From Glaucostegus cemiculus (taxonomy: Eukaryota): DNA of 64,000 nucleotides. A program made the translations under genes and the position numbers. The stretch covers positions 6,510,001-6,574,000 of the forward strand of contig CDPCPM010000017.1 in the NCBI GenBank assembly GCA_976551045.1, given 5' to 3'. Each line of letters starts with the position of its first letter. The stretch's first letter is position 1. The notes under the pieces are model-generated. The model saw nothing but the letters and a program-made list of their open reading frames with translations. It was not told the origin of the DNA and did no database searches. Of this stretch, positions 4,861-61,472 are shown one piece after another.

Positions 4861-5479
4861 AGACAGTTCCTGAATTGAGAGAACTTGGGAAGAATGGGTG
4901 AAATCAAGCTGGATTCAGTCTGGTGCCTGGGCTCAGCACCAGTAACCCTTATCCTCACCCACCCATACTTACCTGGACTGGATGTTGGGGTCTGGGTGAG
5001 TTGACCATCTACCACAGGGAGCCGAGTGGCTGGGCATCTGCTAGTGCCCCACATCCCCACTCACGAGACATCCTGAAAGCACTTCAAAGGAAATCAATCT
5101 AGGGGCAGGGACTGCAATTACCTCAAAGCCTGTCAAGCTTTGCAAGTTTGCAAACATCAAGAGATTAGCACGGGACTGGTACGGATGGTGCCTGGTGGTT
5201 GGCCCAGGGATCAAAGGTCATATTTCTGTGTTGCATGACTCTATTACTTATTGCTGTGTGATCCACTGAGCATTTTCATGGGAATAAAATGGCAGAATTC
5301 CCCAATTAACACGTGACGCCTTCTAAATGCCAGAAAAAGGTTAACTTAACAGTTAGTCACATGCACATTTGAAAATGGTCATCAAGTGAATGCTCTCAAA
5401 CTTTGGGATATGAGCTTTTAAAGATGAATTTCAGTCACTGAAAGTCCTGAATATGCTCTAATCCTCAAAATCAGCAATA

Positions 5480-8937: not shown

Positions 8938-8943
8938 TATAAA
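8938..8943 (+). promoter_or_regulatory. TATA box of the mucin gene
   Basis: TATAAA starting 54 nt upstream of the signal-peptide ATG; Inr-like TCA near 8966; FOX-like TGTTTAT at 8822-8828 is weak support only. Confidence 0.7.
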
Positions 8944-8991
8944 TGTCTGCAATAAGGAATCCCTCAGAGAGAACACTGGAATGTTACGACA

Positions 8992-9043
8992 ATGAAATAC
9001 TACTCTTCCTTCCTTGCAGTTCTGACCCTTTCCCTGTTCATGG
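8992..9043 (+). CDS. muc19: Exon 1, signal peptide [17 protein letters not shown]
   Basis: ATG with A at -3, hydrophobic core, donor G|gtaaga, phase 1 matching exon 2. Confidence 0.8.
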
Positions 9044-12000: not shown

Positions 12001-15000
12001 ATGACATTATTGTCACTGAGTCTCCCACCATCAATATCCTGGCCCCTGACGACAACAAACTCATTTGAACCAGTCATACAAATACTGTGCTACAAGAACA
12101 AGTCAGAGGGTGGATAACCTGCTGTGTGCGACTCACCTCATGACATACAAAGATTTTTCACCATTCTTGAGGCACAAAGGTACCACTTACCTGGACAAAT
12201 GCAATCCCAAACATTTAAGAAACTTGATACCATAGAGAATAAAGTACCCCACCCACACCTAAACACTGAGTCCTTCCACCATCAGCACTCAGTGGCTACA
12301 GTATACACCATCTACGAAATGCACTGCAGTTACTCATCTTGGCCACTTCAACAGCACCTCCCAAATCCACAATTTCTGTTGGTAAAATGGATAAAGGCAG
12401 CAGAGGAGCACTACTACCTGCAGATTGCTCTCCAAGTCACACACTATCCTGCAGTTCTTTCAATGTCTCTGGATCCAAATCTGGAAATTCAACCCAAAAA
12501 TTTTATTAGAGGACTGTTATTGGAAGGTCTGCAGGAGTACAAGGAGGGGGCAGCTTGGGAATGACAATCAATATTGGGTTGCAAGAGGTGCCCACATCCT
12601 ACAAAGTGAATCGAAAAAAGATATTCAGTGGTCAATTAGTGACTAAACAAGTATTTTAGATGTTTAACTAGAGTTAACAATTCAGTACCAATGAAAGGTC
12701 ATAATCTGAAACAACTCCATTTCTCTCTCTTCAGATCCCGTCTCTTCCCTACGTACTTTTATTATCCCAAAGAGACTGATCAAACAAGAATACAATCACT
12801 GATTAACTAAGAATCTGACTCAAAAATGGAGCATTAAGATAATGATGATAGGAAATTAATTTATGTATCAGTAAGGCAATCTCTTTCTGTAATTTTGAAT
12901 ATTTACATCTATAATGCATTGACTTCTGCAGAATCACGCGGATTGCTAGATGAGAATTTCTTGTTAGGTTAAATCTGTAATTGCTGATTTGGTACAGAAA
13001 AAACCATTCTGTGGCTTTCCATATCAAGAGATTCTAAATGTTTGATTGCAAGAGAATTGTATCAAAAGAAAAGCACTGAGATTTCATGGAAGTTAATATC
13101 TGTGTCACTTCTAAGAGAAGACATTGAAGTGCATTTTTGTATTCTATATCCACAAATCCCAATATCTCATTTTCATTTAGGCCTTCATGGCTCTGTGCAT
13201 TCACTGGTCTCCAGCAGTCTGGAGGACACATCACACAACAGCATTGGTAAGTGGATCTTATTCTTTGGTTTAAAATTTCTACATTTTTGATCAAACATCT
13301 TTGAAGAATTGCTGCCACTATACTATCAAGTATTGTTATTTCTCCTCTGCCATCAGGGACCTGTTACACATGGGGGAAAGGAGCATTCCGGACTTTTCAG
13401 GATGATTTTTTCTACTTCACATCAAAGTGCAACTTTGTTCTGAGTCGTCAGTGCAAGGGCCCTGGAGAGGATTTTAACATACAGATTCGCAGAGGATCTA
13501 ATGGCAATCTGGATCATGTACACATGCAAATTGAAGGCATCTCTGTTATTATAGAAAACAAAACAATTACAGTGAAAGATATGATGCAAGTTATATTCAG
13601 ATAATCTATTGTGGGTTTATTTAGCAAATTTTAATTCAGATAGTTTTATTCTTTCATTGGTTATACTAGAATTTCATGTGAACACCAATGTTTAGGGAAT
13701 AACTATAATCAAGGTTGGGTGAGATCTAACTTGCCATTGAAGTACATGTAAAGCTATTTAAATGACACTAAGCCAAAAGCATAAAATGGATGTCCAGTAA
13801 TGCATATCATCCATGTTTATTGCTGAGAATGACTAAGGGAACTTTTTTATTTTAAACTGGATCAGATTCTCTTTCAGATCCAAATTAGTTACTGATTGCA
13901 CACTTTTGTTTTGCAGAATACAATTGCCCTATGATGACAAAATCATCACTGTGCAGAAACATGGAATTTACACGCGCTTTTCAAACAGAAAGCACACAAT
14001 TGCTCTGATCTGGAATCAGCATGATTCATTGTCGGTAAGACAAAAAATGGAATTTTCTGCTTCTGAAATTCTGTAACTTGCAACATTCAACAGGAATTGT
14101 GCATATTATGGTAACCAAATGGCCATTCTTCATGTTTCAAAGCAAAGGCCAAGGTTAGCAGTTATTTGAGAATCGAAGGTCTGGGTTTATTTTCCTCATC
14201 CACAGAAAAGCTGTGTGTAGTGACAACACTCCAGCAAACCACAGAGGAGGTTATTGAGTGATCCACTGTCAACCAGCATTAATGAACGTTAAGCAACTAA
14301 GATTGATTTTAGGCACAGAACTTGTATGTAACTATCCTTCGCTGACTATATTTCGCCTGAAGAAACTATTATGCTTTTATTGAGAAAAATTGCACCAGTT
14401 TCCGTTTCCTCTCCAGACACTTTTTTTTTGAGAAATTGACTATGTTTGCTGTATGACAGACATTTTCTGAGTCACACTCCTCTCTTCATCTCCATGCCAT
14501 GGGTTGATACAGCATTGGCAGAGTATTAACTTCCAAAAAGAAATCTCACAATAATGGAACAACAGCCTGTACTTATGCAGCACCATTAACATAGCAAAAT
14601 TTGAAACCAAGCTTCATAAGGAACTATTAGCCCAATGACATAGGTTTCAAAGAAATAGGTTCAATGGAGGATTTTCAGAGGAGGAGGGAAGGGTACAGAG
14701 GCTGGTTTATAAAGGAAATCCCAGAAATAAGGGACTTTGTAGTTGAAGCATCTGGTATTGATGTTGGAACAAGAAAAATAAGGGAATTATATCCTTTGCT
14801 TCAGTAATTCCAGTGTCTATCATTTTGGATAAACGCGTGAATGCAGCTCAATCATTGTAACGGCACAAATGATTACAGTGATACTTTTCAACTGGGTGAG
14901 GGTTACTTCTACTGGATTTCAATTACTTAAGTAAAGATTTTAATTTCCAAAGCATTGTTCATTGCATTGGGACATCCCAAAGAACTTGCTTTGTGCTTTT

Positions 15001-18000
15001 GAAATGCTGTCACACAAGAAATGGAGACAGTCACTTTGTGCTCAGTCAGCTCTCACAGATGGTAAGGAGTTAATTGTTAGGGAAAGGTATTCCCCACAAA
15101 AAATGTATTTGCTCTTCCTAAAAGTACTGCTGTGGAATCCTTAACACTGCATGAGAGAACAGATGAACCTCAGTTTATTGTTTCATTCGAAGAACTTCTA
15201 ACAGTGCAGCACTGCCTCAGAAGTGGATTGGAGTATCAGCCTGGAATTTAAGCTTACGTCTGTTACATCTGGAAATGACGTTGTCCAGAAGGTTCTTCAA
15301 AGGTCAAAGTCACAGCCGTTTTATTAGATATTCATCAAGGTACAGGTCAGATAGTGTCAGCTTGTACCAGCAAGCAAGGCAAGTAAAACAAAGTAACAAA
15401 GAACCTGCCCCCGTGCTCTCGCTTGTAACTGCAAACTGGTCTAAACTGGTTAGATTAAGGAATCTTCTAGTAACAGCCTGTAAAAAGGTACTGTCTGAGT
15501 TGTACTTCAGTTTTACAGACAAGAAACTCCAGAAGTATAGAGCCAAATATACAACAAATTACTAAAGATTTACAGACAACAGGTAATTCTACCAACAAAT
15601 AAGCAAGCATAAAGAAAGCTTAAACTACAAATCAAACAAGAAAAACAACAATCTGGACCCTAATCCAACACATCTTTGGAGTGGGACTTGAACTCACAAC
15701 CTGATGATTCAGATGCAGAAATACTACTGCTAAGGGACAGCAGTCAATTTTCAGTTCGGTGCACAATTAGTTTTATGATTTAGCTTATCATCAAGCAATT
15801 ATTTGAATTTAAACACATATCACTGGTACGTAAAGTGATGAATACAAATAGTAGTTCATTGACATATTTCCAGAAGGGTATCAGTTACCATAACATATTC
15901 ATAATATATTTAGAGTCTCAACTTTTATCGACAGGTAACCCTGGATACCAAGTACAAAAACAAAACATGTGGCTTATGTGGGAATTTTCAAGAACAAATG
16001 GAAATCAATTCTGGTAATTAAAGCTGTTAAGATGTTAAAGAGTTAAACCACACTTTGGTACTGCACTCAAATCTCCAGTGATGGAATCACAGTGAGCAAT
16101 GGGATAAGCTGTACCGAAGGACTAAGATGCTGCAAAATGTAATGCAGGATGTGTTATTCTGATAAAGTATCAGTGTACAATAGAATTACAAGCAATCAAC
16201 AAGTGGAATTGAAGTCCAGTGGGGGGGACAACAAAAGACAAATTAAAAGTAACATTTGCCTTAAAACTCAAAGAAAAAACAAGGCGGCAAGGAATGTTTT
16301 CAGGAATGGAATTTACTTTTGCACATTGAAAAAACGTGCACGAGCATTCCAGTAAAATAACAATGTGCGTTAACCTGGACAGAACCGATTATGAGCATGG
16401 ATCTAGAATTGATAGTGGCCACAAGCTGATACAATAGTATAACATAGTGACGCTGCTTCGACAGGAAATTATACATTATAATAATATAGCATGGAAGCTG
16501 GCCCTTCAGCCCAACGCAACCATGCTGACTATGGTGCCCACTTGCCATATCCCTCTAAACCCCTCCAATCCATGTACTTATCCAAATGTCTTTTGAACGC
16601 TGTTAGTATACCTGCCTCAATCACTTTCTCTGACAGCTCATTCCATATACGCTCCACCCACTGCACAAAGAGGTTGCCCCTCAGGTCCCATCTTTCACCT
16701 CTCACCTTAAACCTATGCCCTCTAGTTTTTATTTTCCTTTCTGTGGGAAAAACACCATGACCCTCAGGACTTTATACACCTCCAAGGTCATCCCTCAATC
16801 TCCTACACTCTAAGAAATAAAATCATAGTCTGCCCAGCCTCTCCCTATAACTCAGGCCCTCGAGTCCTGGCAGCGTCCTCGCAAATCTTTTATGCGCTCA
16901 TTCTGGTATAATCATGTTCAGCACAGCTTTGTGGGCCGAAGGGCCTGAATTGTGCTGCAGGTTTTCTATGTTTCTATGTCTTTTACACAGGGCCCAACCA
17001 TTCACTGTACAAGTCCTACCCTCATTTGAGTTCTCAAAATGCAACACTTCCTACTTATCCAAATGTTTCATACATAATAAATGATAAAGTGAAAATAATT
17101 GGTTAACATTTCCTCATCTAACAGTGCTTTTCGCATTTTAGAGATTTGTAGCACCTGGCATCTCATAATATATTTCCCTTCTTGGTCCATGCAGATTCTC
17201 CTGATGCTTTAAACAACATTATTGTTGCCAATCAGCTGGATGTTCTGGGCCATGTTTGTGTTAATGATAATCCTACACTTTCAACATGCACAGCAGCTAT
17301 GGTAAGGTTTGAAAATCAAAAACGCTACTAAACAATTGCTTCCAGAAATGATAAACATTTTTTTCATTTCTGACTCTGTTTCTAATGATGAATATATTAG
17401 AGTGAATAGTCAAGCAACATCTTTATCCCAGATTGGAGATGTCTGGATGTGAATGAGTCAACTGGAAAGTAATAACAATCCGATAACTTTCATGGTCATT
17501 CTGTCTGATGCTTGTCAATCTTCAAAGAGTCAATAAACATTTTGTAGGAGAATCCATTGCTGGAAGGTTCAACAGCACACAAGGCTCAAGGCATCATGCT
17601 TTGGTACCTTGCACACTCACATGCTTTCCTTTGCATGTTTAAGCACAGAAGGAGTCAGAGATTGGGGCAAATGAATGGGCAGGGGATCTGTGTTGTGGCT
17701 TTGGTGATCTGGGGTAGAGCATGAAGTTCCGGTCACCAGTTAGGGGTTACAATTGGTGGTCATGATAATGTGGGGCTCATGGCCATTGGATAGATTGGGT
17801 GGGGAGAGTCGTCTGTGCAGGGAGCAAGTGGGCTGTATGGTGCTGGGGGGTCAATTGAGCAGCAGATTGCTGTCTCAGGGTTGTCATGTAAGAATTGCTA
17901 TCTCTGGTCTGAGGTGGGAAATGGGTTGCTTCCCTGGGGTAGTTAGATAAGTTAATTACTGGAAGGGACCGATCCGAGCTGAGTTCCCAGCACCAACCTT

Positions 18001-51000: not shown

Positions 51001-54000
51001 TGTTCTTTGAACTGCAGAATATTAAGCAATTCTAATGTTCACCGCATTTACATTGCAAATGAAACTGATCTCATTTTGGATAGGGATTTTTGTAAATTTG
51101 CCATCCTCTAGGAAATACTGCATTGTGGTGACTGGCAGATGAACTCTTAAAATTTGTATTTAAAGGGTTTATTATTCCTGACATTTCTTAAAGTTTGAGG
51201 GTCAGATACAGCGGTTTGTATCCTCCTGCATTGCCAATAGGTGCATGGAGCTGTGAGGCAGCAGTGCTAGCTGCACCACTGCTGCATCACCATTTCATAA
51301 CTAGCTCTCATTTCTTAATTGCTTGTTGATATTTATCAGAGTACTTTAATGCTAAACATGCCACATCTTTGTGTTTTTCCAGATTACAGCTGCCCCGACT
51401 GGTTAATTTACAAGCCTTGTGCAAGTCAGGACAATAATCACTTTGACAATAAGTAAGTATTAACCATTGTCAGGAATGCATTGAGGGAACTTTCTGATGA
51501 AGCTAATAATCAAAACTAATTGGCAATCAGGCATTATAAAAACTTAAATTTATTTATTTTATGGAAAAATGTCTTCTAAACTGTGTTGAACAATAGTACA
51601 TATAACCACACCTTTGTTACCATAGTTAAGGAATTTAGCACCAAACTAGTTCTCAGAAAAAACATTCACAAAACAAATCTTTATTTTTAACTTATTATAA
51701 CAACCTCCAATGGAATATTCCAGATTTTGCTCACCAATGAGGAAATTCATCAGTGGTGCGCAGAATACAATTGTGACTTTATAGAAGTATTTTGGAGGCA
51801 ATGAAATCAAATGGCCCGGTTGAACAATCTGCCCAAATATAGAAAAGTCTGGAAACAATCAGCAACTCTGTGGACAGAGAAACAGAATTAACATTTCAAG
51901 CCAATGATTCTTTTTCAGAACTGGAAAAATGGTAAAACCAATGTGCAAAATGCAGCAAAAAATGGAGTGCCTGACCTTCTGAGTATCTAAGTAACTTTTT
52001 GTTTTGTTTCAAATTTCCAGCATCTGCAATTTTTTTTTATTTTGAATCTGGTTAAACAGTATTGCACAGCTCTGGATGGAGCATTGTGATAGCTGGATAG
52101 ATTTTGTTATAGCAGGAGAATACATTGGACAGAATCCTGCTGATCAATGACAGCATTTCATCAGCAAACTGCCATTAGGTACAATTAATTTAAGATGACA
52201 TGTTCAGGGCTTTGATGTAAATATAACTAATTACTTAAATCCAGAATCTGCTAACATATTTCAGTTGCCAAATCCATCCGTATACTGTGCCGCTAGACTC
52301 TGCATGGAATCTAATAGTGAAGCATAAACTTGCTGAGACACCCAAATGTTTACACTGGGGAATCTACTCATTGCTCCTGTACCAGGGCAAAGAGCCAGTC
52401 TAAAATATTCTGGCCTGGCTCATGATCTCCAATCCATTCATTTCCAAAGAAGTTTTGCGGTTTTGAGTCAGAAACGTCAGAATGAGTTACATTTTTTTAA
52501 AAAAAAACATTTAACTTAATTAAAACATTATGACAAAGGTTTTAGTTGATTTCATTATATTTGAATATTTTGTTTAACTTTTTGTTTCATTTTTAATAAT
52601 TGTTGAAAGGTTCTGAATGCATCCAAATTTTAGCAGCCTCGTCTGACAGTAAAGTCGAGGGGGTGAGGTTTGGGTGGGGTGGGGGGGGGCACCTTGCTGT
52701 ATGCCAAAGGATTCCAACAGTCTTGTTGGGAGGCTTGTTCTTTCCCATCCATATGTTGCAGAGTAAGAGAATCACCCACTCAAACAGTTTTCGGTTCAGA
52801 TAGATACATATTTGTTTGATAACTCTATCATCTCGAGTAAGGAGAAAGACACTGATTACCAGTACAGTGCACAATCTCTCTCATTGTACATAATATGGCA
52901 CTTTTATATGCATTGAGCGATAAGGTAAAGCATCTCCACAAACACACAGACTTTCACTGCTGGCCAACCCAGGATGGGAAGCTGTATGATCATTCACTTC
53001 TGACAACATCTTGCCCACATGATCATCGTGTGTTTACAGACACCTAGTCAGGTAATCTCATGTCTGAGGTATCTTTTAGTTCATTTGACACCTTGATTAC
53101 CGTGGTGATGGTACTAGAATTAGATCTGTTACCTCCATTTACCACATTCTTTTCTGTGCCTTTTGAGTATCTCTTATTTCATGCTGCCGTGCAAGATCAG
53201 GTCACGCTACAGGTTTGACTTGCCCTATGCTTTAATAATGTAATATGCAAGTGAACCCCACAGTCTGGTTCCCTGCATCCATTGTCATGTACCACATCAT
53301 ATAACCCAACAATGTTATGCAAAATCCTGGGTCTACGCATGGCATCACTGATCAGGAGAGGACGCTCAGTCAGCATCTTGGGTTGAACTAAGAAAGGCAG
53401 GACAGCGGGGAGTGTAATGTGGTGAGTGCTGCAGTGGGTCCCACTGAGCAATTTCCAGGCCATTTATTCCTACAGTAGGGAAGGAAAGATCTCTCTTTAC
53501 CTTCCCAGCGATCCACATCAGCACTTCAATGAGCCAACATCACCAAGTCTTTCACCAGTACTTTCATGGTGAAGTGCCTTCTCTCTGACCCTAACTCACT
53601 AGTATAACGCTGCCCCCACCATTACATTTGCTGGTTTAATCGGTTTTTGCTGTTTTCAATTCTTTTAAATAAACCTGTTTTTCAGCATGCTGAGCCGCAG
53701 CTGGAAATTGCCCCCCCTGTCAGAAGGCTGCTTTTGTCCAAAAGGAATGATTCTTTCTGAAAACGGGACTACATGCATTGACTCAAGTGAGTTGCCTTAT
53801 TTCTTTAAGTTAAATATAGCACAAGCTGCTTGATCAATAGTAAACCTTAAATAAATGCATATTTAATTAATAATTAAATCGATTTGTTATTCGTGGAAAT
53901 ATAATGAAGGCAATGATATTGTACTCGATTCCACAGGTTGCACAGACAGCTCGGGAAATATAAAATATGTAAGTGTTCTTTTCCTTCAAACCACAACATA

Positions 54001-57000
54001 ACTAAAGGTCCTCATTTATTGTATTACACTGCATTTATGAGTAGAAGTTACTTTGCATCCAAAAGGCCTGAAAAGTGTAAAGACCAATAAAATGTTATAA
54101 CTTTCATTAAATCTGCTCTCCATCATGTGCATGTGACAGGCCAAAATTCACCATACTACCTTAACCTACCTTCCCTCTTATAATTGCAAAAAAGACCACA
54201 GGAAACAATTCCTTCCCTTCTTTGGACACAGTCATATTGACTTTACGAATGTGGTGAATAAATCTGTTATTTTACAAAATGCTTCATGCTTCAGCTTCAA
54301 AAAACAGCATTGTACCATGCACAAAAACCAAGCTGTGTATGGAAGAATTCCCTCCAATGGGGAGAGTGCAGAGAAGTATGGGGAGCAGTTGAGCATCAGA
54401 GAAAGAATGCAACCAGGATGGAGTAGCCTGAGTCCTGGGAGAAATGTGGAGGCAGAATCAAGATCTGGAGTGGGGGTGATGGGGAAGAGAGAGGATCAGG
54501 ACTTGGGGTCAAGGAATGCTGGGACGGAGACTTGGAAGAGATGCAGAGAGAGAATTGCAACCTCATTTGGGAATTGTGGAAATGAAGAGGGATTGATACC
54601 TAGAGATAGAGTTATAGGAGGAGGGAGAGCTCAGAAAGAGGACAGGCTTCAATGGTGTGGAAGATCAAGGAGAAAGAGAAGGGAATAAGATGTGGAGAGT
54701 GAATTGGGATCTAAAGTCAGCTGGGGAAGTGAGTCAGAGAAAGGATTGAGATCCGTCCAGGGATGGGTGTATCCTTGGGAGTTTTGAGACATGAGGATTT
54801 GGGAGAGGTGGTGATCAGAATGAAGGTTAGGATCTGGGGATGGGGGAGCAGAAGGGTTCTGAGAGAAAATCAAAACTCATACATCTTTTCCTGCATGTTT
54901 CATTCCAAGGAAGGAGAAATATGGCGAGATTCTACTGATCAGTGCACCTTCCGGAAATGCATTAAATCTCAGGTTGGTATCACATTTTATTTAAATGTGC
55001 CGCACTTTTGAAGATTGTTAACAAATGCATATCAATGGGTTGATAAATCTATTTAAAATCTAATTAACAGAAACATCATGATTTGATGAATAAACATAAT
55101 ATTTAGAATCAAATAAATGTGGCAGCACGATAGCGTAGCGGTTAGCACGACGCTGTTACAATGCCAGCGATCAGGGTTCGATTCCCATTGCTGTCTGTAA
55201 GGAGTTTGTACGTTCTCCCGTGTCTGCGTGGGTTTCCTCCAGGTGCTCTGTTGTCCTCCCACATTCTGAAAGATGTACGGGTAGGTTAATTTGGGGGTTT
55301 AAAATGGGCGGTGTGGACTCGGAGGGCCAAAAGGGCCTGTTACCGTGCTGTAAATAAAAATTTTTTAAAAATTTTAAAATGCAAAAGGAACTGAAGTACT
55401 GTGGTGACACAAAGGTTCAATTCCCAGACTAGTAATTCAGAAAACTGGATGAATAATCTAGCAACCAAAGTTCAAATCCCACCATAGCAGCTGTGGAATT
55501 TAAATTCAGTTCTTAATATGAAATTTGTGCCACTGATGATGATGAAAACAACTGGACTTTCACAAAAACCTATTTGGTTCACTGATATTGTTTGTGGAGG
55601 AGAACTGTTATCTTTCCCCAATCCTTACCCAAATACACACCACATGGCTGACTCTTAAATGCCCTTTGAAATAACTGAGCAAGCCACTCAGTTATACCAT
55701 TACCATTATGTTCAAACAAAGAAGAAATTAATCCAGTCAAACCACTTGGCATCCAATGGGGCATATTAAATGATTTGGGCATTTTGGTTAATGACCTGCA
55801 ACTGTAACATTGGGTAGGGACCAAGGCCCACATCTTTGTGTGCCACTGAACAGGTTGCACTGAAGACTTATCCTTTTGTGTATTTTGCAATGGCAGAGGC
55901 AATTTGGACATGGCAAGTTACTTCCTGACCCTCATAAGCCCCTCATAAAGTCCTCACAAACATCTGGGACTGCCTGACATAGATGTACTCACAGAATCAT
56001 ACTTTGCCGACAATATACCAGACTCCCAAATAACAATCGCGTCAGCAAGACTAACCCACTAGAGTTGGCGGCATAGTGGCATACAAGAGGGAGTGGTCCT
56101 TGGAGTTATCACTGTTGACTCTAGCCCCCTGGAAGTATTATGGTATCAGGTCAAACATAGGCAAGGAAACATCCTTCTGATTACCACCCACCATCCTCCC
56201 TCTGCTGATGAATTGCTGCTTGTCCATTTTGAACAACTGGAAGAAGCACTGAAAGAAGAACGGGCACAGAACGTACTCTGTCTGGGGAACTTCAATGTCT
56301 GCCATCACGAGTGGCCTAATAGCACTACCACAGAGCAAACTTGAACAACACAGTTGTCAGACTGGGTCTGTGGCAATTACTGAAGCAACAGGAGGATAAA
56401 CCAATGTGACCTCATCCCCACCAATCTACCTGTGGCAGATGCATCTGTTCATTATAGTATTGTAGAAGTGAGTGGCAGGCAGCCCTTGTGGAGACAAAAT
56501 TCCATTTTCACGCATCTTCCCTGTATCACTAAATGGGAGAGACGCAGAAGCAGCTCAAAACTGGGCACCCATGAGGTGCTGTGGACTATCAGTAGCAATG
56601 TCCACCCACCACAATTTGTAACCTTATGGCCTGGCATATCCCTCACTACCACTACTATCGAGCAATGGAACCAACCCTGGTTCAATGCGTGCAAAGGGCA
56701 CGCTGCCAGCAGCAGCAGTATATCTGAAAGTGAAGTGCCATCCCCGTGAGGCTGCAGTACAGCACTACGTGGTCGTTGAACAGCAAAATAAGTATATAAT
56801 GGACCCAGGTATACTGCAGCTTACACATTTGGACTGAGACAAAGTGATGGAGGGATTTGAGATGGGTAAGATTCTCAAGGCCATGAGATTTTGTTTGGGG
56901 GGGGGGGGGAGGTGTTGTGGATCATGAGACCATTTATAGTTTTCAGGAATAAGGGTTATGCCAATGAAATCATATTTTAACTGAAAATTACATAACTGTA

Positions 57001-60000
57001 ATTGATTTATGAGTATTCCTGTGTTTCTGTGTGATTCCAGTGCTAGTCATACTCCAATAACATTTATATCGTCAACTAATTGTAAGATTTCTGTGTGTTT
57101 AGACGAGAACAATTTGGACTGAAGATCACTGCTGCCACTCATGTTTATTAAAAGAAGGTATTCATGTGACTTCTTTAGTCCCAGTTACATTTAGATCATT
57201 CTTAGTGACGGTTTAAAGCAATTGTAGACTTTGAAGGTGGTGGGGTGGGGTGGGGTGTGGGAAGAACGTGGAGTGACTAGAAAATAGAATATTTTAAAAA
57301 TAGAATTGGTCTGGTGGCTAATTATTTTGTCCAGCTTCACATTGACAAAAAGCACAGGGACAGTCTCATGTGTTTCAGCTGGAGCAGAGGAGTACCACTA
57401 ATGGCCTTGTAACTGTGAGGAGAAAAATCAGTAGCAAAAATATGTGCAATACAACCAAAAACATTACTGGTCTCTAGGATATGAATCCTTCTACATCTGA
57501 TTGCATTTGTTCTCATTTCTTCTGATGATATTTTACACAGACTGCAGATTTCAACGTCTGGCTTTTGGAACTGTTAACCTAAGTTCACACGTAAAGCCAA
57601 GGAATTCCTTTTTACTTCATGGTGGAATGTTCCTCAATTTCACTCCAGCAAACAACTCACCTTCACCCCAATCACAGATCATTTAAAATAAGTAGGGTGG
57701 GCACAACATGCAAGTGAATAAAAATATTTCAATTGAACTACCCTGGCTACTGGAATTTAACTACTATGGTACCTCTCCAGTGACAGAAAGGAAATACTGA
57801 AAACCCCTCAAAAAATAGGGAAAATATGAGAGGAAAATTAACTCAAATCCTACCATCAGGCGAGCAATTCTGTGGGTCTCCCGGGGCCAGATTGGAATTT
57901 TAGTGTTCACATGTCCAATGTACCTGAAGAGATTAATCATGCAAAGCATTAACCAAATGTATCTGGTTGGTTCATATACTATTTCTAAATTATAAGCAAG
58001 TAAAAATCCAGTTATTTCCTGGTTGATTTATTTGTTTTTTATAATTTGGACATACAGCTAAAATTTTCCTCTCAAGACCAATACACTTACTGGTAGCATC
58101 ACTGAGCTGAATTGCCAATCCATAGCTAGGGTTTTTCTGTTCAGTAAAGTGCACTACCATATTGTACAAGGTTCATTTATTCAGGGCATCTGAGGGTGTA
58201 AGTGAATTAAAAATCACAAGTTACTTCAGTACTATAATTCCAAGCAAACTCCTAGACCACTCAACACCTCACTTTTCAATTGGGCCCTTGACTTCCTGAC
58301 CAACATAGCACAATCAGTAAGGATAGGCAACAACACCTCCGCCACAATTCTTCTCAACACTGGTGCCCCACAAGACTGTGTCCTCAGCCTCTTACTTCCT
58401 AGATGCTCACGACTGCATGGCCAGACTCTGCTCTACTTCCATCTACAAGTTTGCAGATGACACCACCATAGTGGGCCAAATCTCAAATAACAATGAGTGA
58501 GTAAAGGAAGGAGATAGAGAGTCTAGTGGCATGGGGTCATGTAAACAACCTTACCCTCAATGTCAGCAAAACAGAAGAACTTATCATTGACTTCAGGAAG
58601 GTGGGGCGGTGGGGTTCACATGTTCCTCTTTACATCAACCCCACTGAAGTCAAGAGGTTTGAGAGCCTCCTAGGAGTAAACATCACTAATAGCCTTCCTG
58701 GTCCAACCACGTAGATGCCATGGCTAAGAAAGCACACCAGCACCTCGAATTCCTCAAGAGGTTAAAGAAATTTGGCATGTTCCCTTTGGACCTCACCAAT
58801 TTTTATAGATGCACCTCAGAAGACATCCTTTCAGGATGCATCATGGCTTGGTATGGCAACTGCTGTGCCAGAGACTACAAGAAGTTGCAGAGAGTTGTTG
58901 ACTCAGTTCAGCACATCATGGAAACCATGGAGTTTGTATACACTTCTTGCTTTCTTGGTGAAGCAACCAATGTAGTCAAAGACCCCATCCACCCTGAGCA
59001 TTCTCTCTTCTCCACCCTCCCACAGGGCAGAAGATCAAAAGCCTGAAAGCACATACCACCAGTCTCAAGGACAGCTTCTATCCTGCTGTTATAAAGCTAT
59101 TGAATGGTCCTCTAGTACGATAAAATGGGCTCTTGACCTCACAATCTACCTTGTCATGGCTTTGCACCTTATTGTCTACCTGCACTGCACTTTCTCTGTG
59201 ACTATAACACTTTATTCTTGTTAAACTTATTCTGCATTCTGTTATTGTTTTTCCCTTGTACCACCTCAATGCATCGATGTGATAAAATGATCTGTATGGA
59301 TGGCATGCAAAACAAAGTTTTTCACTGTACCTCAGTACATGTGACAGTAATAAACCAATTTACCAATTTCCCTCTGAATTTGATTTTCTTTTCTCCCCAC
59401 TTTGAAATGTCTGCAGGAATTACAAGGCTTCATATTGGTCATCCAATTCTGTTATTAATTATCCTCCATCAAAGTTGTCACCCATAACATTTGATGTCTT
59501 AATGTTTTAGTCAGTTGCTCCTCAGGAATCTAACCAACCAAATGATTTCCTTACCCCTTCTAGTTATGTTCTGCTAGGGATGACACTTATACAAGTTCTA
59601 TAGTAGTAGTTGTCTTGCTGCAAGTAGAAATATTTTGTTTATCTTTTTCCTATTTTTAAATGCTGGATTGTTTTTCATTATCTTTTCATAGATGCTTGTC
59701 AGATGTTGGTTTATTCCAAAATTGTCACACAAGCAAATTCAAGCTGCTGGGCAGAAATTGACATGGCAAAATGTCAAGGTAGCTGCCCTGGAAAATTTGA
59801 GTAAGTACTTCTTCAGAATAAGTGTAGGAGGCTAGAGATTTCAGAGAGGAAAATGCCCGGGAGGATGTAAAGGAGAGCTGCAAAAGATGGCACTGCATGA
59901 AATCTTTCAGCATGAAAGAACTGGAGGACAGAAAGAGAGCCCAACCATATCTTGCTAAGATTGCCCCTCTGACAATGTAATAGTCTGAGTGGATGACATA

Positions 60001-61260
60001 ATGTAGTGTGATACTAGATGGGCAACTAATTAGAGGCCAGGGATCATCAGTGAGAGCAGAGTTCATATAGGCCAAGGATGTCAACCAGAACTTCCAAGAT
60101 TAAAGCAATATTTCAACTTAATTTGCCAGTGACCAATCCAACTTAGTTATCTTTCTGACATATTTAGAACTTTTTCCAGCCAAAGGAAAGAACATAAGAA
60201 GGAGGAGTAGACCTCTATGTGTGGCTCCTTGAGTTTGCTCTGCCACTGATTTGATCTTAACTTTAGCTACACTTCCCTATTTGTTTCTCATAAACCACAG
60301 TTACTCTGTAAACCAAAGAGCTATCTCAGCCTTTATTAAATGATTCATCATACAGGAGGGCAGGGTAAATATGTTGAGTTAGATCTGTCTTTCTGAATGC
60401 AGGAAGGAAAAATCCCTTTGGTTGGAGTATCAAAATCTCTCGCTGTTCAATATAAAATATGTAATTTTACACAGCAGAAAACGAAATCACTGTGCTAACT
60501 CATGTTAAACCTGTATCAGACTGCTGATATGCAGGGTGAGAGAGGAAAGGTGCTACAAATCCCAGTTATTTAGTCTTATCATTTAATTATTCTGGTGTGC
60601 TTTGTGTATTTTGGTGGGGGAATCCAGGACTAGAGGGCACAACCTTAGAATTAGAGGAAGCAGGTTCAAAACAGAGATAAGGAGGAATTTCTTTAGCCAG
60701 AGGGGGTGAACCTGTGGAACTCCTTACCACAGAAAAGAGTGGAGGCCAGATCATTGGGGATATTCAAGAAGGAAATAGATAGATATCTAATTGGTCGAGG
60801 TATCAAGGGATATGGAGATAAGGTGGGAATTTGGAGTTAGAATAGGTTTTTTTCATTCTTTTTCATCCTCTTTTCCCCCCTTTTTCCCCCACCCTCCCTT
60901 CCCTTTGGAGCAGACTCGATGGGCCGAGTGGCCTGCTTCTGCTCCATTATCTTGTGATCTTATTTTAAGGTGTTTCTTAATTCAGCTGGCATCCAATCTA
61001 TGCTGAGATTCTTACCATAATATGTGGTCGCTATTGATTGATTTTTATTTGAACTGATACACAATTTGCATCCCTCTTCCAGATTTGACACTGTTACTAA
61101 CAGCATGATAAAAGAGTGTAGCTGTTGCCAAGCTACCAGGACTGAAAACAGGACAGTGAATCTCGATTGTGGAAATGGAGACAGTGTGCCTTACAACTAC
61201 ACCTACATAACAGCATGCAAGTGCAACAGTAACAACTGTTATAATAATACACCAGCTTAA
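8992..61260 (+). CDS. muc19: Gel-forming mucin, MUC19-like; spliced gene of 42 coding exons, about 2378 aa (SP-D1-D2-D'D3-PTS-CysD-D4-C8-TIL-VWC-CK)
   Basis: Exons joined by hand through GT-AG (one GC-AG) sites with all phases consistent; lengths sum to 7137 nt with no internal stop. VWD CGLCG motifs, C8/TIL cysteine patterns, PTS array and cystine knot are present. D3 text [28 protein letters not shown]...[13 protein letters not shown] matches the MUC19 subfamily as recalled. Confidence 0.88.
10670..12620 (+). mobile_element. Decayed CR1/L2-clade LINE in intron 1
   Basis: Remnant peptides [17 protein letters not shown] and [18 protein letters not shown]; A-rich end near 12615. Confidence 0.75.
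13181..13246 (+). CDS. muc19: Exon 2 ([22 protein letters not shown])
   Basis: tttcatttag acceptor, G|gtaagt donor, phase 1-1. Confidence 0.8.
13357..13585 (+). CDS. muc19: Exon 3, VWD1 start ([33 protein letters not shown]...)
   Basis: catcag acceptor; VWD C-x-TWG-x3-F-x-TF pattern; ends at GC donor AT|gcaagt, phase 2. Confidence 0.88.
13917..14034 (+). CDS. muc19: Exon 4, VWD1 ([18 protein letters not shown]...[10 protein letters not shown])
   Basis: ttttgcag acceptor, gtaaga donor, phase 2-0. Confidence 0.88.
14965..15735 (-). mobile_element. Old tRNA-derived SINE (Deu-domain-like) split by an LTR; related copies near 32500-33000 and 62560-62800
   Basis: Reverse B-box-like ggagtgggacttgaactcacaacc at about 15679; body motif cagtgcagcactgcctcag before the insertion. 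Confidence 0.55.
15261..15670 (-). mobile_element. Putative solo LTR
   Basis: TGTT...AACA ends, near-TSD cgtc/catc, minus-strand AATAAA near 15322; interrupts a SINE. Confidence 0.65.
15935..16013 (+). CDS. muc19: Exon 5, VWD1 CGLCG ([19 protein letters not shown]...)
   Basis: acag acceptor, G|gtaatt donor, CGLCGNF motif. Confidence 0.92.
16485..17060 (-). mobile_element. CR1 3' fragment, with a short opposite-strand tail at about 16912-16980
   Basis: Reverse complement of CR1 ORF2 end and UTR (ccttaaacctatgccctctagttt). Confidence 0.85.
17195..17301 (+). CDS. muc19: Exon 6, VWD1/C8-1 linker
   Basis: catgcag acceptor, ATG|gtaagg donor, phase 1-0, open frame with two Cys. Confidence 0.82.
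19207..19693 (+). mobile_element. Possible solo LTR
   Basis: TG...CA ends, flanks gttaat/attaat, AATAAA at 19643. Confidence 0.35.
19931..20106 (+). CDS. muc19: Exon 7, C8-1 ([13 protein letters not shown]...[11 protein letters not shown])
   Basis: ttttcag acceptor, AG|gtaatt donor; C8 motif CxTFxELSRQC. Confidence 0.9.
20340..20620 (-). mobile_element. CR1 fragments
   Basis: actgatccctgcagaacaccactggtcac matches the minus CR1 copy at about 3214-3240. Confidence 0.7.
21327..21385 (+). CDS. muc19: Exon 8, end of C8-1 (...[10 protein letters not shown])
   Basis: ttatag acceptor, G|gtaaga donor, phase 2-1, WR-x4-C motif. Confidence 0.85.
21488..21613 (+). CDS. muc19: Exon 9, TIL1 ([21 protein letters not shown]...CECPEG)
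   Basis: TIL cysteine pattern; canonical splice sites, phase 1-1. Confidence 0.93.
22246..22366 (+). CDS. muc19: Exon 10, TIL1/E1 ([30 protein letters not shown])
   Basis: ctcag acceptor, TG|gtaatg donor, phase 1-2. Confidence 0.93.
22451..22589 (+). CDS. muc19: Exon 11, E1/VWD2 start ([10 protein letters not shown]...[21 protein letters not shown])
   Basis: gtcag acceptor, gtacgt donor; CPGRC and HFTTFD motifs. Confidence 0.92.
23041..23133 (+). CDS. muc19: Exon 12, VWD2 ([14 protein letters not shown]...TCLHHVVL)
   Basis: ccacag acceptor, CAG|gtgaga donor, phase 0-0. Confidence 0.9.
23235..23307 (+). CDS. muc19: Exon 13, VWD2 ([15 protein letters not shown]...)
   Basis: gtgtag acceptor, G|gtaaaa donor, phase 0-1. 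Confidence 0.85.
23380..23517 (+). CDS. muc19: Exon 14, VWD2 ([33 protein letters not shown])
   Basis: tttttacag acceptor after a 72-nt intron; PxMQLY motif. Confidence 0.92.
24401..24556 (+). CDS. muc19: Exon 15, VWD2 end ([15 protein letters not shown]...FANSW...PDPCISSEN)
   Basis: GLCG-x-FN and FANSW motifs; phase 1-1. Confidence 0.94.
25123..25215 (+). pseudogene. Decayed partial duplicate of exon 15 and its donor site
   Basis: ttttgctaattctt and aagcatacttgacccatgcatgagttcagaaaacagtaatataacaaagg match 24480-24493 and 24522-24571 with an internal deletion. Confidence 0.85.
25232..25467 (-). mobile_element. V-SINE (HE1-like), young
   Basis: tRNA-like head, V-domain core and CR1-like tail; close inverted match to 55121-55360. 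Confidence 0.9.
27136..27230 (+). CDS. muc19: Exon 16, C8-2 ([27 protein letters not shown])
   Basis: ttgcag acceptor, CAG|gtaaga donor. Confidence 0.92.
27919..28045 (+). CDS. muc19: Exon 17, C8-2 ([31 protein letters not shown]...NWRRDIC)
   Basis: C8 cysteine pattern; ttccag acceptor, gtacgt donor. Confidence 0.93.
29182..29428 (+). CDS. muc19: Exon 18, TIL2/E2 ([28 protein letters not shown]...)
   Basis: Inside ORF 29157..29432; TIL pattern; phase 1-2. Confidence 0.94.
29515..29570 (+). CDS. muc19: Exon 19, E2 ([10 protein letters not shown]...)
   Basis: ctgcag acceptor, G|gtatcc donor. Confidence 0.9.
29679..29779 (+). CDS. muc19: Exon 20, D' TIL ([11 protein letters not shown]...[12 protein letters not shown])
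   Basis: ctttag acceptor, gtaagt donor, phase 1-0. Confidence 0.92.
30073..30221 (+). CDS. muc19: Exon 21, D' ([30 protein letters not shown]...)
   Basis: CAGCAG tandem acceptor (start 30073 or 30076), TG|gtaaga donor. Confidence 0.92.
30312..30450 (+). CDS. muc19: Exon 22, E'/VWD3 start ([10 protein letters not shown]...[17 protein letters not shown])
   Basis: YGDGHY-x-TFDG motif; canonical sites. Confidence 0.95.
31157..31261 (+). CDS. muc19: Exon 23, VWD3 ([30 protein letters not shown])
   Basis: MUC19-type ILTESVPCC; phase 0-0. Confidence 0.93.
31388..31579 (+). CDS. muc19: Exon 24, VWD3 (...[33 protein letters not shown])
   Basis: Inside ORF 31370..31594; GLYL and IWDK motifs. Confidence 0.95.
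32116..32352 (+). CDS. muc19: Exon 25, VWD3 end/C8-3 ([12 protein letters not shown]...FGNSWK...[16 protein letters not shown])
   Basis: CGLCGNF motif; AAG acceptor; AAG|gtacgt donor. Confidence 0.95.
33141..33297 (+). CDS. muc19: Exon 26, C8-3 ([37 protein letters not shown])
   Basis: C8 pattern with the MUC19-type EG[RK]YLGFC; canonical sites. Confidence 0.95.
33555..33680 (+). CDS. muc19: Exon 27, TIL3 ([21 protein letters not shown])
   Basis: CDYYN..GEC.WHY.PCG motif; phase 1-1. Confidence 0.95.
34268..35548. repeat. Inverted-repeat element with nested insertions (possible non-autonomous DNA transposon)
   Basis: 34318-34342 is the exact reverse complement of 35483-35507; similarity extends over about 90 nt; second inverted pair at 34361-34475 and 34560-34672. 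Confidence 0.75.
36202..36340 (+). CDS. muc19: Exon 28, TIL3/E3 ([32 protein letters not shown])
   Basis: Inside ORF 36117..36380; phase 1-2. Confidence 0.93.
36961..36992 (+). CDS. muc19: Exon 29, E3 end ([11 protein letters not shown])
   Basis: 32-nt exon; ttccag acceptor, G|gtattt donor, phase 2-1. Confidence 0.88.
39125..40690 (+). CDS. muc19: Exon 30, PTS mucin domain, 522 codons
   Basis: tttag acceptor, G|gtaaat donor, phase 1-1; Thr/Ser/Pro-rich frame of ORF 39106..40698. Confidence 0.93.
39130..40685 (+). repeat. Coding VNTR, 39-nt unit ACGACAACAACCGGAGTGTCAACAACCACAAGTCTTCCT ([13 protein letters not shown]), about 40 copies with variants
   Basis: Directly visible tandem array; variant units carry TTSIATS, EVS, RVS and [10 protein letters not shown]. 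Confidence 0.97.
41226..41852 (-). mobile_element. Rex1/Babar LINE 3' fragment
   Basis: Open frame [19 protein letters not shown]...LPSGRRL...[15 protein letters not shown]; tail caataaatctgattctgatt on the minus strand. Confidence 0.9.
45540..46049 (+). CDS. muc19: Exon 31, CysD domain (CLTWSKWYN...IQCEA...GLVC...[10 protein letters not shown]) plus short PTS and pre-D4 Cys segment
   Basis: WxxW C-mannosylation motif at 45551-45562, C-x-DY-x-IRV-CC end; phase 1-1. Confidence 0.92.
46149..46381 (+). CDS. muc19: Exon 32, VWD4 start with GDPH ([30 protein letters not shown])
   Basis: WGDPHY motif at 46163-46180; canonical sites. Confidence 0.95.
46890..47073 (+). CDS. muc19: Exon 33, VWD4 (...[18 protein letters not shown])
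   Basis: NNT-x-GQCG motif typical of MUC2/MUC5 D4; phase 0-1. Confidence 0.92.
47199..47415 (+). CDS. muc19: Exon 34, VWD4 end and Pro-rich linker ([16 protein letters not shown]...[15 protein letters not shown])
   Basis: AAG acceptor, AA|gtatgt donor, phase 1-2. Confidence 0.88.
48445..49160 (-). mobile_element. CR1 3' fragment
   Basis: Minus [11 protein letters not shown]...[25 protein letters not shown]. Confidence 0.88.
50651..50835 (+). CDS. muc19: Exon 35, C8-4 ([10 protein letters not shown]...CLFDQC...CSSLQAC...[13 protein letters not shown])
   Basis: C8 pattern with CVDWR-x2-TNG-x-C; canonical sites. Confidence 0.93.
51383..51452 (+). CDS. muc19: Exon 36, TIL4 first half ([22 protein letters not shown])
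   Basis: ttttccag acceptor, gtaagt donor, phase 1-2. Confidence 0.88.
53686..53786 (+). CDS. muc19: Exon 37, TIL4 second half (...[22 protein letters not shown])
   Basis: EGCFCP motif; ttttcag acceptor, gtgagt donor. Confidence 0.9.
53937..53968 (+). CDS. muc19: Exon 38, VWC start ([11 protein letters not shown])
   Basis: 32-nt exon; ccacag acceptor, gtaagt donor, phase 1-0. Confidence 0.85.
54910..54972 (+). CDS. muc19: Exon 39, VWC ([21 protein letters not shown]); 3' boundary uncertain
   Basis: GE-x-W...C-x4-C pattern; AAG acceptor; CAG|gttggt is the only nearby donor giving phase 0. Confidence 0.72.
55121..55360 (+). mobile_element. V-SINE (HE1-like), young
   Basis: A-box-like tagcgtagcgg at 55131, B-box ggttcgattcc at 55175, V-domain ggagtttgtacgttctcccgtgtctgcgtgggtttcctcc, A-rich tail. 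Confidence 0.9.
55400..56780 (+). mobile_element. Decayed LINE 5' part with APE endonuclease remnant
   Basis: [24 protein letters not shown]...[10 protein letters not shown] resembles YRPP...GDFN of APE domains; its 3' part resembles 10670-10950. Confidence 0.7.
57103..57157 (+). CDS. muc19: Exon 40, VWC end ([18 protein letters not shown])
   Basis: CC-x2-C motif; branch-like ctaat then tgtttag acceptor; G|gtattc donor, phase 0-1. Confidence 0.78.
58230..59370 (+). mobile_element. Rex1/Babar LINE 3' half, inactive
   Basis: YKFADDTT codons at 58444-58467, [34 protein letters not shown]; aataaa plus ccaattt tail. Confidence 0.92.
59692..59800 (+). CDS. muc19: Exon 41, cystine knot first half (DACQM...[17 protein letters not shown])
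   Basis: C-x-G-x-C knot motif; ttcatag acceptor, gtaagt donor. Confidence 0.92.
60615..60960 (+). mobile_element. CR1 3' fragment
   Basis: ggactagagggcacaacctt...tgtggaactccttaccacag...gggccgagtggcctgcttctgctcc. Confidence 0.8.
61083..61260 (+). CDS. muc19: Exon 42, cystine knot end (KECSCCQ...LDCGNG...[14 protein letters not shown]) and stop
   Basis: CSCC and CxC knot motifs; TAA at 61258-61260. Confidence 0.95.
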
Positions 61261-61466
61261 CTGAGCACAATTCTTGCCATCTGTTGATCCTGAAATCTAA
61301 AATTGTAACCAATCTGCAGATATCTTTTTAATGATTTTCCTCATGTAGCATTTGGCTGGTAAAGCCTCTTTAAAAATAAGGTATTTTCAATTAATTTTTA
61401 TAAAGAATCGTGGGATCTTCTTAATAATTTTAACAAGATAATTCAAACCTGTCAATTATTAAAATT

Positions 61467-61472
61467 AATAAA
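61467..61472 (+). terminator. Polyadenylation signal AATAAA
   Basis: About 200 nt after the stop, followed by a GT-rich element (gtgtgatgtatattgttctt). Confidence 0.75.

Follow-up and report, generated by a model that had tools for sequence, protein, structure and literature searches.

A MUC19-family gel-forming mucin gene in a ray that probably keeps an ancestral layout with CysD and D4 modules

GENE STRUCTURE AND MODULE ORDER

The window analysed here is a 64,000-nucleotide stretch of the Glaucostegus cemiculus genome (contig CDPCPM010000017.1, positions 6,510,001 to 6,574,000 of the forward strand), within which a mucin gene runs on the + strand from an ATG at 8992 to a TAA that ends at 61260. 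The gene was rebuilt from the DNA with related proteins as guides, which yielded 42 exons, 7,137 nt and 2,378 aa, with a single, terminal stop codon and none inside the frame. Forty introns have GT-AG ends. The remaining one, intron 3 within D1 (13586-13916), is of the GC-AG type, and its GC donor is needed for the frame and for agreement with the reading of the Mobula protein P0011. A TATA-like box (8938-8944, 54 nt 5ʹ of the ATG) and two polyadenylation-type hexamers at 61458 and 61467 (61458-61472), all on the same strand, are putative signals recognized by pattern match.

The encoded modules follow one another in the order signal-like leader, D1-D2-D'D3, PTS, CysD, a short PTS with a 5-Cys linker, GDPH-D4-C8-TIL, a reduced VWC and a cystine knot (CK). 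Gel-forming mucins are recognized by three N-terminal VWD-C8-TIL units, a PTS region and a C-terminal cystine knot, all of which are present. Exon 1 (8992-9043) holds the start codon and a hydrophobic segment that, judged by eye, resembles a signal peptide; it matches the N-termini of Mobula P0011 and P0016 and of Leucoraja P0022. The leader continues into exons 2-10 (13181-22366), which encode the D1 assembly (VWD1 with CGLCG, C8, TIL and E; VWD E = 1.9e-8 on exon 3). Exons 11-19 (22451-29570) encode the D2 assembly and exons 20-29 (29679-36992) D' and a D3 assembly of the MUC19 type, with C8-3 in exon 26 (33141-33297). The D' (TIL-E) region lies at 29679-30450, and a matching region is visible in mammalian MUC19 models; one review describes MUC19 as lacking D' (PMC11207715).

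Exon 30 (39125-40690, phase 1-1) is the PTS mucin domain, an array of 40 units of 39 bp (13 aa) that amounts to 522 codons with ~52% Thr. Exon 31 (45540-46049, also phase 1-1) carries a single CysD (45542-45820, with a WSKW motif and 8 Cys), the short PTS and the 5-Cys linker into D4. The D4 assembly (VWD4, C8 and TIL) occupies exons 32-37 (46149-53786), with GDPH codons at 46166-46177, and is followed by one reduced VWC-like module in exons 38-40 (53937-57157). Exons 41-42 (59692-61260) encode a C-terminal cystine knot with 11 Cys and CQGSC and CSCC motifs, and end in the stop codon (61258-61260). Pfam searches with single exons recovered Mucin2_WxxW (PF13330) in exon 31 (E = 1.3e-16), VWD in exon 32 (2.6e-12), C8 in exon 35 (1.2e-10), and DAN (9e-5) and Cys_knot (4e-4) in exon 42; TIL in exon 37 fell below the cut-off (0.003), and exon 39 gave no match. 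Among database proteins, that of the sawfish Pristis pectinata (P0001) is the nearest, with 93-97% identity per module.

All of the modules listed in an earlier note on this DNA were found, except that its 'VWC' is a remnant: 60 aa with 7 Cys lie between D4 and CK, versus ~260 aa with mostly 36 Cys in MUC2/5. By eye, the remnant can be aligned with more complete modules in paralogues from Pristiophorus and Pristis. Cysteines have been lost from this module in the ray orthologues, which have 7, versus 9-10 in shark orthologues and paralogues.

No other gene was seen in the flanks, and a tblastn search of the flanks and large introns with 123 mucins as queries revealed no additional mucin exons. 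An Rfam search over the window gave no match. The 5ʹ flank contains a broken LINE-type reverse transcriptase (5428-6746; RVT_1 E = 2e-12 at 5895-6263), and two intronic ORF remnants, at 58693-59043 (+) and 41513-41908 (-), resemble LINE 3ʹ ends; the first matches PF09004 (E = 2e-6), which we take to be a LINE-associated model. Repeats of high copy number, covered very deeply by reads from both strands, lie at 42177-42225 and 48870-48930. The end of the Hypanus P0014 model matches 42196-42300 on the minus strand, and the last exon of that model is probably a false exon derived from a repeat.

CONTINUITY OF THE GENE

The earlier note described one frame-consistent gene from D1 to CK. This description holds, in that the 42 exons are free of internal stops and both the PTS-CysD and the CysD-D4 connections are spliced in a relative. 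The RNA evidence comes from four public runs (two assembled into contigs, both from one study, and two raw) of a relative whose sequence is ~95% alike, placed on 40600-51500. Junctions 30-31, 31-32, 32-33, 33-34, 34-35 and 35-36 are present in both contig runs. Five of these joints (46049-46149, 46381-46890, 47072-47198, 47415-50651 and 50835-51383) agree with the model and have GT..AG ends. The exon 30-31 joint runs from 40691 to 45541 in both contig runs, one base off the 40690/45540 of the model, an offset that we infer to reflect a different first base of exon 31 in the relative (Gly in Pristis versus Glu in the window). Raw reads crossed the six joints 1, 6, 0, 2, 2 and 7 times in one of the two raw runs; the second had no reads on them, and run X3 had no exon coverage. 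No single contig reaches from exon 30 to D4; exon 31 is interrupted by a gap of 41 nt. Where the PTS exon ends (40603-40686), five of the relative's RNA reads loop back and contain 30 additional letters, so the PTS array of the relative differs in its number of units.

A different reading of the locus would be that two adjacent genes, or a misassembly, have been joined at the PTS array. Some database models are indeed split at the PTS exon (Leucoraja P0022 and P0005, and Mobula hypostoma P0016), and the exon 29-30 junction lies outside the stretch covered by RNA. Against this, frame and phase are continuous across exons 29-31, the PTS-to-CysD splice is seen in RNA, and the interval 36345-45500 contains neither a signal peptide exon nor a second D1-D3. 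Single models that cover the full length also exist for Mobula birostris, Hypanus, Heterodontus, two catsharks, zebra shark and bamboo shark. We therefore give next to no credence to two genes or a misassembly and treat the locus as one gene.

THE N-TERMINAL HALF IS OF THE MUC19 TYPE

The modules of the window gene were compared with a set of 409 proteins, which are automatic gene models and in several cases isoforms of one gene. Trees were built on subsets chosen by hand for taxon spread (63, 56, 75, 55, 50, 51, 63, 66, 34 and 30 rows) from this set, which is without shark MUC2/MUC5 and without complete amphibian, reptile or coelacanth MUC19.

The motifs that the earlier note quoted as MUC19 signatures are all present in the gene model. 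In residue numbers, TWGKGA lies at 44, ILTESVPCC at 894, HTVGLYLIL at 948, NPYC..WA.RKC at 1035, EG[KR]YLGFCTAVA at 1080, GCYAKCP at 1155 and PYLDEN.MKCV at 1165, with GDPH at 1910. Among 123 proteins, the seven N-terminal motifs occur only in rows that are named MUC19, come from sharks, rays or bichir, or are unnamed, and in none named MUC2 or MUC5.

In the D3 tree, mammalian MUC19 and the bichir, gar, teleost and lungfish rows form one group with the window versus MUC2/MUC5 (support 100/100), and the same support was obtained after adding MUC6, lamprey, amphioxus, Ciona, VWF and otogelin-like rows. The D1-D2 tree likewise places the window in MUC19 (100/99). Identity of the window D3 to mammalian MUC19 is 61-63%. 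MUC6 forms a separate branch in both the D3 and the D1-D2 trees, with the window outside it, and the D3 of the window is outside the MUC2/5 clades and without their D-C-x-C interface motif. The earlier note had named a D3 grouping with MUC2/5 as evidence against its MUC19 assignment of the N-terminus; the D3 tree shows the opposite. A pair of lamprey proteins is sister to MUC19 in the D3 tree (94/84). The lamprey proteins P0295, P0321 and P0406 keep the D-C-x-C motif and have no CysD, and P0406 has two tandem D4 units.

The missing interface motif bears on how the chains might be linked. In Javitt et al. (PMC6739602), MUC19 is said to be without the cysteines equivalent to MUC2 C1088 and C1090; in MUC2, C1082 is the partner of C1090, and C1088 forms the link between chains. 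By alignment, Y1083 and G1085 of the window occupy the C1088 and C1090 positions, so that both cysteines are absent, as for a MUC19 N-terminus. The equivalent of C1082 is C1077 (codon 33189-33191, in exon 26), whose MUC2 partner is absent. This orphaned cysteine is kept in 170/170 MUC19-type D3 segments, versus replacement of the C1130 equivalent in 28/162 (rows in both counts include isoforms). Because MUC19-type D3 modules are without the C1088 and C1090 equivalents, the orphaned C1077, together with C1125 (MUC2 C1130), would be the likeliest interchain disulfide, a proposal to which we give slightly better than even odds. The orphaned cysteine may be the constant interchain link of MUC19-type chains. 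Among solved structures matched, MUC2, MUC5AC and MUC5B are the best templates, and no MUC19 is among the matches.

THE TAIL GROUPS WITH BONY-FISH MUC19 MODULES

The earlier note had labelled the C-terminus MUC2/MUC5-type and considered a chimera. In its lineage-specific form, this would be a MUC19 head that in cartilaginous fish became joined to a CysD-D4-CK tail derived from MUC2 or MUC5. Database names (mucin-2-like or mucin-5AC-like) speak for it, as does the raw identity of the window D4, which is 35-41% to MUC5/MUC2 and equal to that for bichir MUC19 (38%). Raw identity was rejected as a test of D4, D1 or D2 origin: it is uninformative, with the same range for MUC2/5 and bony-fish MUC19.

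The D4 trees and topology tests argue against such a fusion. In the unrooted tree, the window D4 groups with bony-fish MUC19-type rows, bichir and paddlefish versus MUC2/5 (100/100). In the rooted tree, 21 MUC19 D4s form one clade (100/97), within which chondrichthyans, lungfish and ray-finned fish appear in species order, and two lamprey D4s, from the pair that is sister to MUC19 in the D3 tree, are sister to it (99/97). AU tests rejected placing the shark D4 with MUC2 (p = 1.6e-4), MUC5 (3.3e-5) or both (4e-5). A mixture model on 30 D4 rows again united MUC19 and lamprey (100/99) and, less strongly, jawed-vertebrate MUC19 alone (93/85), with the root inside MUC5 (95/89). The deep D4 root is unstable, since lamprey sequences cannot have split off after tetrapod and ray-finned MUC5.

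The remainder of the tail points the same way. The CK tree (95 columns) groups the window with mammalian and bony-fish MUC19 versus MUC2/5 (100/98). Between D4 and CK, MUC19-type proteins have a spacer of 59-142 aa (10 aa in one), versus 190-408 aa, mostly ~260, in MUC2/5. The D4 and CK of the window thus fall outside the MUC2/5 clades, and the multi-VWC tail is absent. The D3 and D4 trees also show the same paralogue groups. The fusion is therefore refuted for D4 within this sample, and we regard it as highly improbable overall. On these comparisons of sequence, the tail is best classed as MUC19-type, not MUC2/5-type, and the earlier label is to be dropped: D4, CK and, in the best trees described below, CysD group with bony-fish MUC19 modules, apart from those of MUC2/5. 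By eye, the VWC-VWC-CK tail of mammals can be aligned with the post-D4 stretch of lungfish and carp MUC19, as is expected if D4-C8-TIL was deleted.

DISTRIBUTION AND ELASMOBRANCH PARALOGUES

The layout is widespread in elasmobranchs. Of 62 shark and ray rows (the window and isoforms included), 34 span D3 to CK; D4 is present in 33/34, and CysD together with D4 in 32/34. D3, CysD and D4 are combined in 16 elasmobranch species besides the window, and in bichir. Querying with the CysD-D4-CK region of bichir recovered another 58 MUC19-type rows (55 named teleosts, gar, lungfish and one unnamed), which have D4 in all cases (by selection), GDPH in 56/58 and CysD in 0/58. The layout thus extends beyond cartilaginous fish, with both CysD and D4 in bichir MUC19 and D4 in teleost, gar and lungfish MUC19. 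Neither module was found in any of 28 mammalian MUC19-named rows (7 of which reach CK), in agreement with what the earlier note had stated of mammalian MUC19. In the Bagarius (catfish) model P0164, SLCO1C1 is joined to a MUC19-type mucin, which hints at the gene neighbourhood, and the Brachyhypopomus (knifefish) protein P0146, named 'mucin 5e', is MUC19-type.

A quick D3 tree of 60 shark and ray rows gave five paralogue lineages, four of which include both sharks and rays. The elasmobranch MUC19-type rows have 0-11 CysDs per model and are mostly named mucin-2-like, mucin-5AC-like or mucin-6-like; GDPH is kept in 31/39 of their D4s (rows P0001-P0063, P0082, P0108 and P0245). The available models suggest that the paralogues of one species lie mostly on one chromosome, not necessarily as a tandem array. 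The lineage of the window gene has one CysD, whose distance from D3 is 6-51 aa in seven shark rows and 454-742 aa in four ray rows. The long PTS precedes the CysD in rays (P0001, P0011, P0014 and the window) and follows it in sharks (P0003, P0004, P0006, P0008-P0010 and P0013), which shows that different exons were expanded in each group.

ORIGIN OF THE CysD

The window CysD matches solved CysDs of MUC5B, MUC5AC and MUC2 (E = 5e-11 to 3e-8), and an ESM Atlas search returned the CysD family at 0.91, a match of low recognition value that serves only as a lead. Whole-protein Pfam scans missed the CysD in P0011, P0006, P0033, P0053 and P0086, so CysDs were counted with a profile built from 149 CysD segments. 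Single CysDs after a MUC19-type D3 were found in the bichir proteins P0086 and P0125 (D3-CysD-D4-CK) and in Polypterus P0264 (D3-CysD), and paddlefish P0124 has 13 CysDs followed by a MUC19-type D4 and CK. The copy number in MUC19-type proteins thus ranges from 0 to 13. The presence of the same layout in bichir is a further argument against a fusion specific to cartilaginous fish.

In the CysD tree, the MUC19 CysDs of sharks and rays, bichir and paddlefish are separated from all 48 MUC2/5 CysDs (100/99), with support of 85/95 once invertebrate rows are included (98 columns). An AU test that forces the shark CysD together with MUC2/5 is not significant (p = 0.20), a result that the fusion hypothesis would accommodate. 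The common ancestor of shark MUC19 and bichir MUC19 very probably had a CysD.

The source of the CysD before that ancestor is a separate matter. We think it probable, with less assurance, that it was inherited from an earlier mucin and not inserted. Amphioxus mucins carry CysD and D4-like units, and both amphioxus and Ciona mucins have a CysD after D3, which makes presence the likely starting state. No CysD was found in the lamprey MUC19-sister proteins (P0295, P0321 and P0406), in both lungfish MUC19 models or in MUC6, and inheritance from the first vertebrate mucin therefore needs several losses.

Alternatively, D4 and CK were inherited and the CysD was inserted once, on the jawed-vertebrate MUC19 stem, from another CysD-bearing gene and later multiplied in elasmobranchs and paddlefish. 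Such a shuffle, before the split between sharks and bony vertebrates, would date to over 420 million years ago, and it differs from the preferred explanation only in the CysD source before that split. The CysD-less lamprey sisters and MUC6 fit this scheme, as do the spread in copy number and the position of MUC19 CysDs outside a group formed by MUC2, MUC5, lamprey P0341, amphioxus and Ciona CysDs (97/86). A possible donor type exists in the free-standing CysD-only family that PMC11765562 describes for fish, skate included; this family is also the second feature match in the ESM Atlas (0.89), a lead only. However, a long branch alone would also place the MUC19 CysD outside, the lamprey models may be incomplete, and amphioxus and Ciona mucins already have a CysD after D3. 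CysD loss is also frequent, to judge from the named teleost MUC19 rows (0/55 with CysD) and from 15/26 frog mucins in PMC4948705. We consider the insertion possible but rather unlikely, and inheritance remains our preferred account. The earlier note's suggestion that a phase 1 intron before the CysD exon would permit shuffling adds no weight, given that 19/41 introns are phase 1 and seven exons are symmetric 1-1. Exon 31 is, moreover, not a clean CysD cassette, because it includes PTS and a portion of the linker to D4 as well.

A PROBABLE ANCESTRAL MUC19 LAYOUT AND ITS PROPOSED WORKING

The explanation that best accommodates these findings, at a probability of roughly 85%, is that the window gene is an intact batoid MUC19-family gel mucin that keeps the layout of the common ancestor of sharks and bony vertebrates, D1-D2-D'D3-PTS/CysD-D4-VWC-CK, and is one of several elasmobranch MUC19 paralogues. 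Of the two readings offered in the earlier note, this corresponds to an ancestral architecture trimmed in mammals, which is favoured by each module grouping with MUC19 and by the same layout in bichir; the chimera loses to the D4 topology tests (p ≤ 1.6e-4) and to the bony-fish affinities of D4, CK and, less firmly, CysD. The CysD would later have been lost in gar and teleosts and in lungfish, and on the way to mammals D4 would have been lost too, with VWC-CK kept.

By analogy with other gel-forming mucins, the product is predicted to be secreted, to dimerize tail to tail via the 11-Cys cystine knot and to be linked head to head through D3. Its Thr-rich repeat would be densely O-glycosylated, and the polymer would form a gel. 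The GDPH sequence could be a self-cleavage site, as in MUC2 and MUC5AC. The CysD may serve as a non-covalent cross-link, in the ray gene more likely near the tail. In MUC2, filament formation requires CysD1, which follows D3 at a distance of ~40 aa (PMC7599080); the shark orthologues have a comparable spacing, the ray gene does not. Because 526 aa separate D3 and CysD in the window, a clamp on the neighbouring head in the style of MUC2 CysD1 is less likely than in the shark orthologues with their 6-51 aa.

If these assignments are right, the textbook division in which CysD marks MUC2/MUC5 and is absent in MUC19 is corrected: CysD and D4 belong to early MUC19, and mammalian MUC19 is a trimmed form for which an order of losses can be proposed. 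Numerous elasmobranch proteins that carry the names mucin-2-like or mucin-5AC-like are MUC19 paralogues, which bears on how shark mucus proteomics is interpreted. The natural variants (CysD near or far from D3, C1130 present or absent) are suited to studying MUC19 polymerization without the MUC2 interface cysteine. The window gene itself is an evolutionary correction, not a new kind of system. A bolder reading, which we consider doubtful, is that MUC19 acquired a CysD of its own, separately from MUC2/5, along the jawed-vertebrate stem and that elasmobranchs built a parallel MUC5-like repertoire (five lineages, 1-11 CysDs) polymerizing via the orphaned C1082 equivalent. On that reading, a large part of the annotated shark mucin-2/5AC would represent a convergent MUC19 system.

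COMPARISON WITH KNOWN MUCINS

Parts of this layout are already in print. Lang et al. (2016, PMC4948705) state that the fourth VWD is missing from Muc6 and from mammalian Muc19, that PTS occurs together with a fourth VWD in some spiggins, that CysD is characteristic of MUC2/MUC5 and that there are three Muc19 paralogues in C. milii; since the missing D4 is limited there to mammalian Muc19, the absence of D4 and CysD defines the mammalian form, not the family. Four vWD are given for spiggin B in Seear et al. (PMC4989455), and the orthology of spiggin and Muc19 was established by synteny in Kawahara and Nishida (PMC2180178). For seabream, published work describes a muc19 with a 'very similar structure' to other secreted mucins (PMC11035888) and Muc19 expression in the oesophagus (PMC3680472). 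One review gives CYS domains for MUC2, MUC5B and MUC5AC only (PMC11207715). Shark skin mucins are named mucin-2/5B-like in PMC10707392, and the main text of the catshark genome paper (PMC11979771) does not contain the word 'mucin'.

The earlier note had allowed that the architecture might already be documented for non-mammalian MUC19. This is so for D4 in fish Muc19 and spiggin in PMC4948705 and PMC4989455, but not for CysD: no description of a CysD in MUC19 was found in the literature searched, although subscription papers, the rest of the supplement to PMC4948705 and its authors' web figures could hold one. Within a search that covered few subscription papers, no elasmobranch MUC19 expansion was found described beyond the three C. 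milii paralogues in PMC4948705. In the searched literature we found no account of CysD retention, of the elasmobranch paralogue set or of the orphan-cysteine hypothesis, whereas D4 retention was already known.

Compared with mammalian MUC19 and submaxillary mucins, the window gene shares D1-D2-D'D3 orthology, the missing C1088 and C1090 equivalents and the CK clade, but it has CysD and D4-C8-TIL, one large Thr-rich PTS exon and a single reduced VWC in place of two. Teleost Muc19 and stickleback spiggin B share the four VWD units and have D4 in the same clade; the window differs in having a CysD and a D4-to-CK spacer of 60 aa versus their 136-142 aa. The bichir and paddlefish models named 'mucin-19-like' or 'mucin-2-like', which are database models only, have CysD, D4 and CK in the clades of the window, and bichir has the full D3-PTS-CysD-D4-CK. 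Bichir P0086 is, however, without the C1130 equivalent, and paddlefish P0124 carries its 13 CysDs in place of one.

MUC2, MUC5AC and MUC5B resemble the window gene in overall domain order, WxxW CysD fold, GDPH-D4 and CK dimer motif. They differ in forming a separate clade in each module tree, in the D-C-x-C of C8-3, in a multi-VWC tail of ~260 aa and in having at least two CysDs. The closest known relatives are elasmobranch proteins annotated as MUC2-like: the 'mucin-2-like' proteins of Pristis (P0001), Mobula (P0011), Hypanus (P0014), Heterodontus (P0006) and Scyliorhinus (P0008) are direct orthologues with one CysD each, and those of sharks differ from the window gene in that the long PTS follows the CysD.
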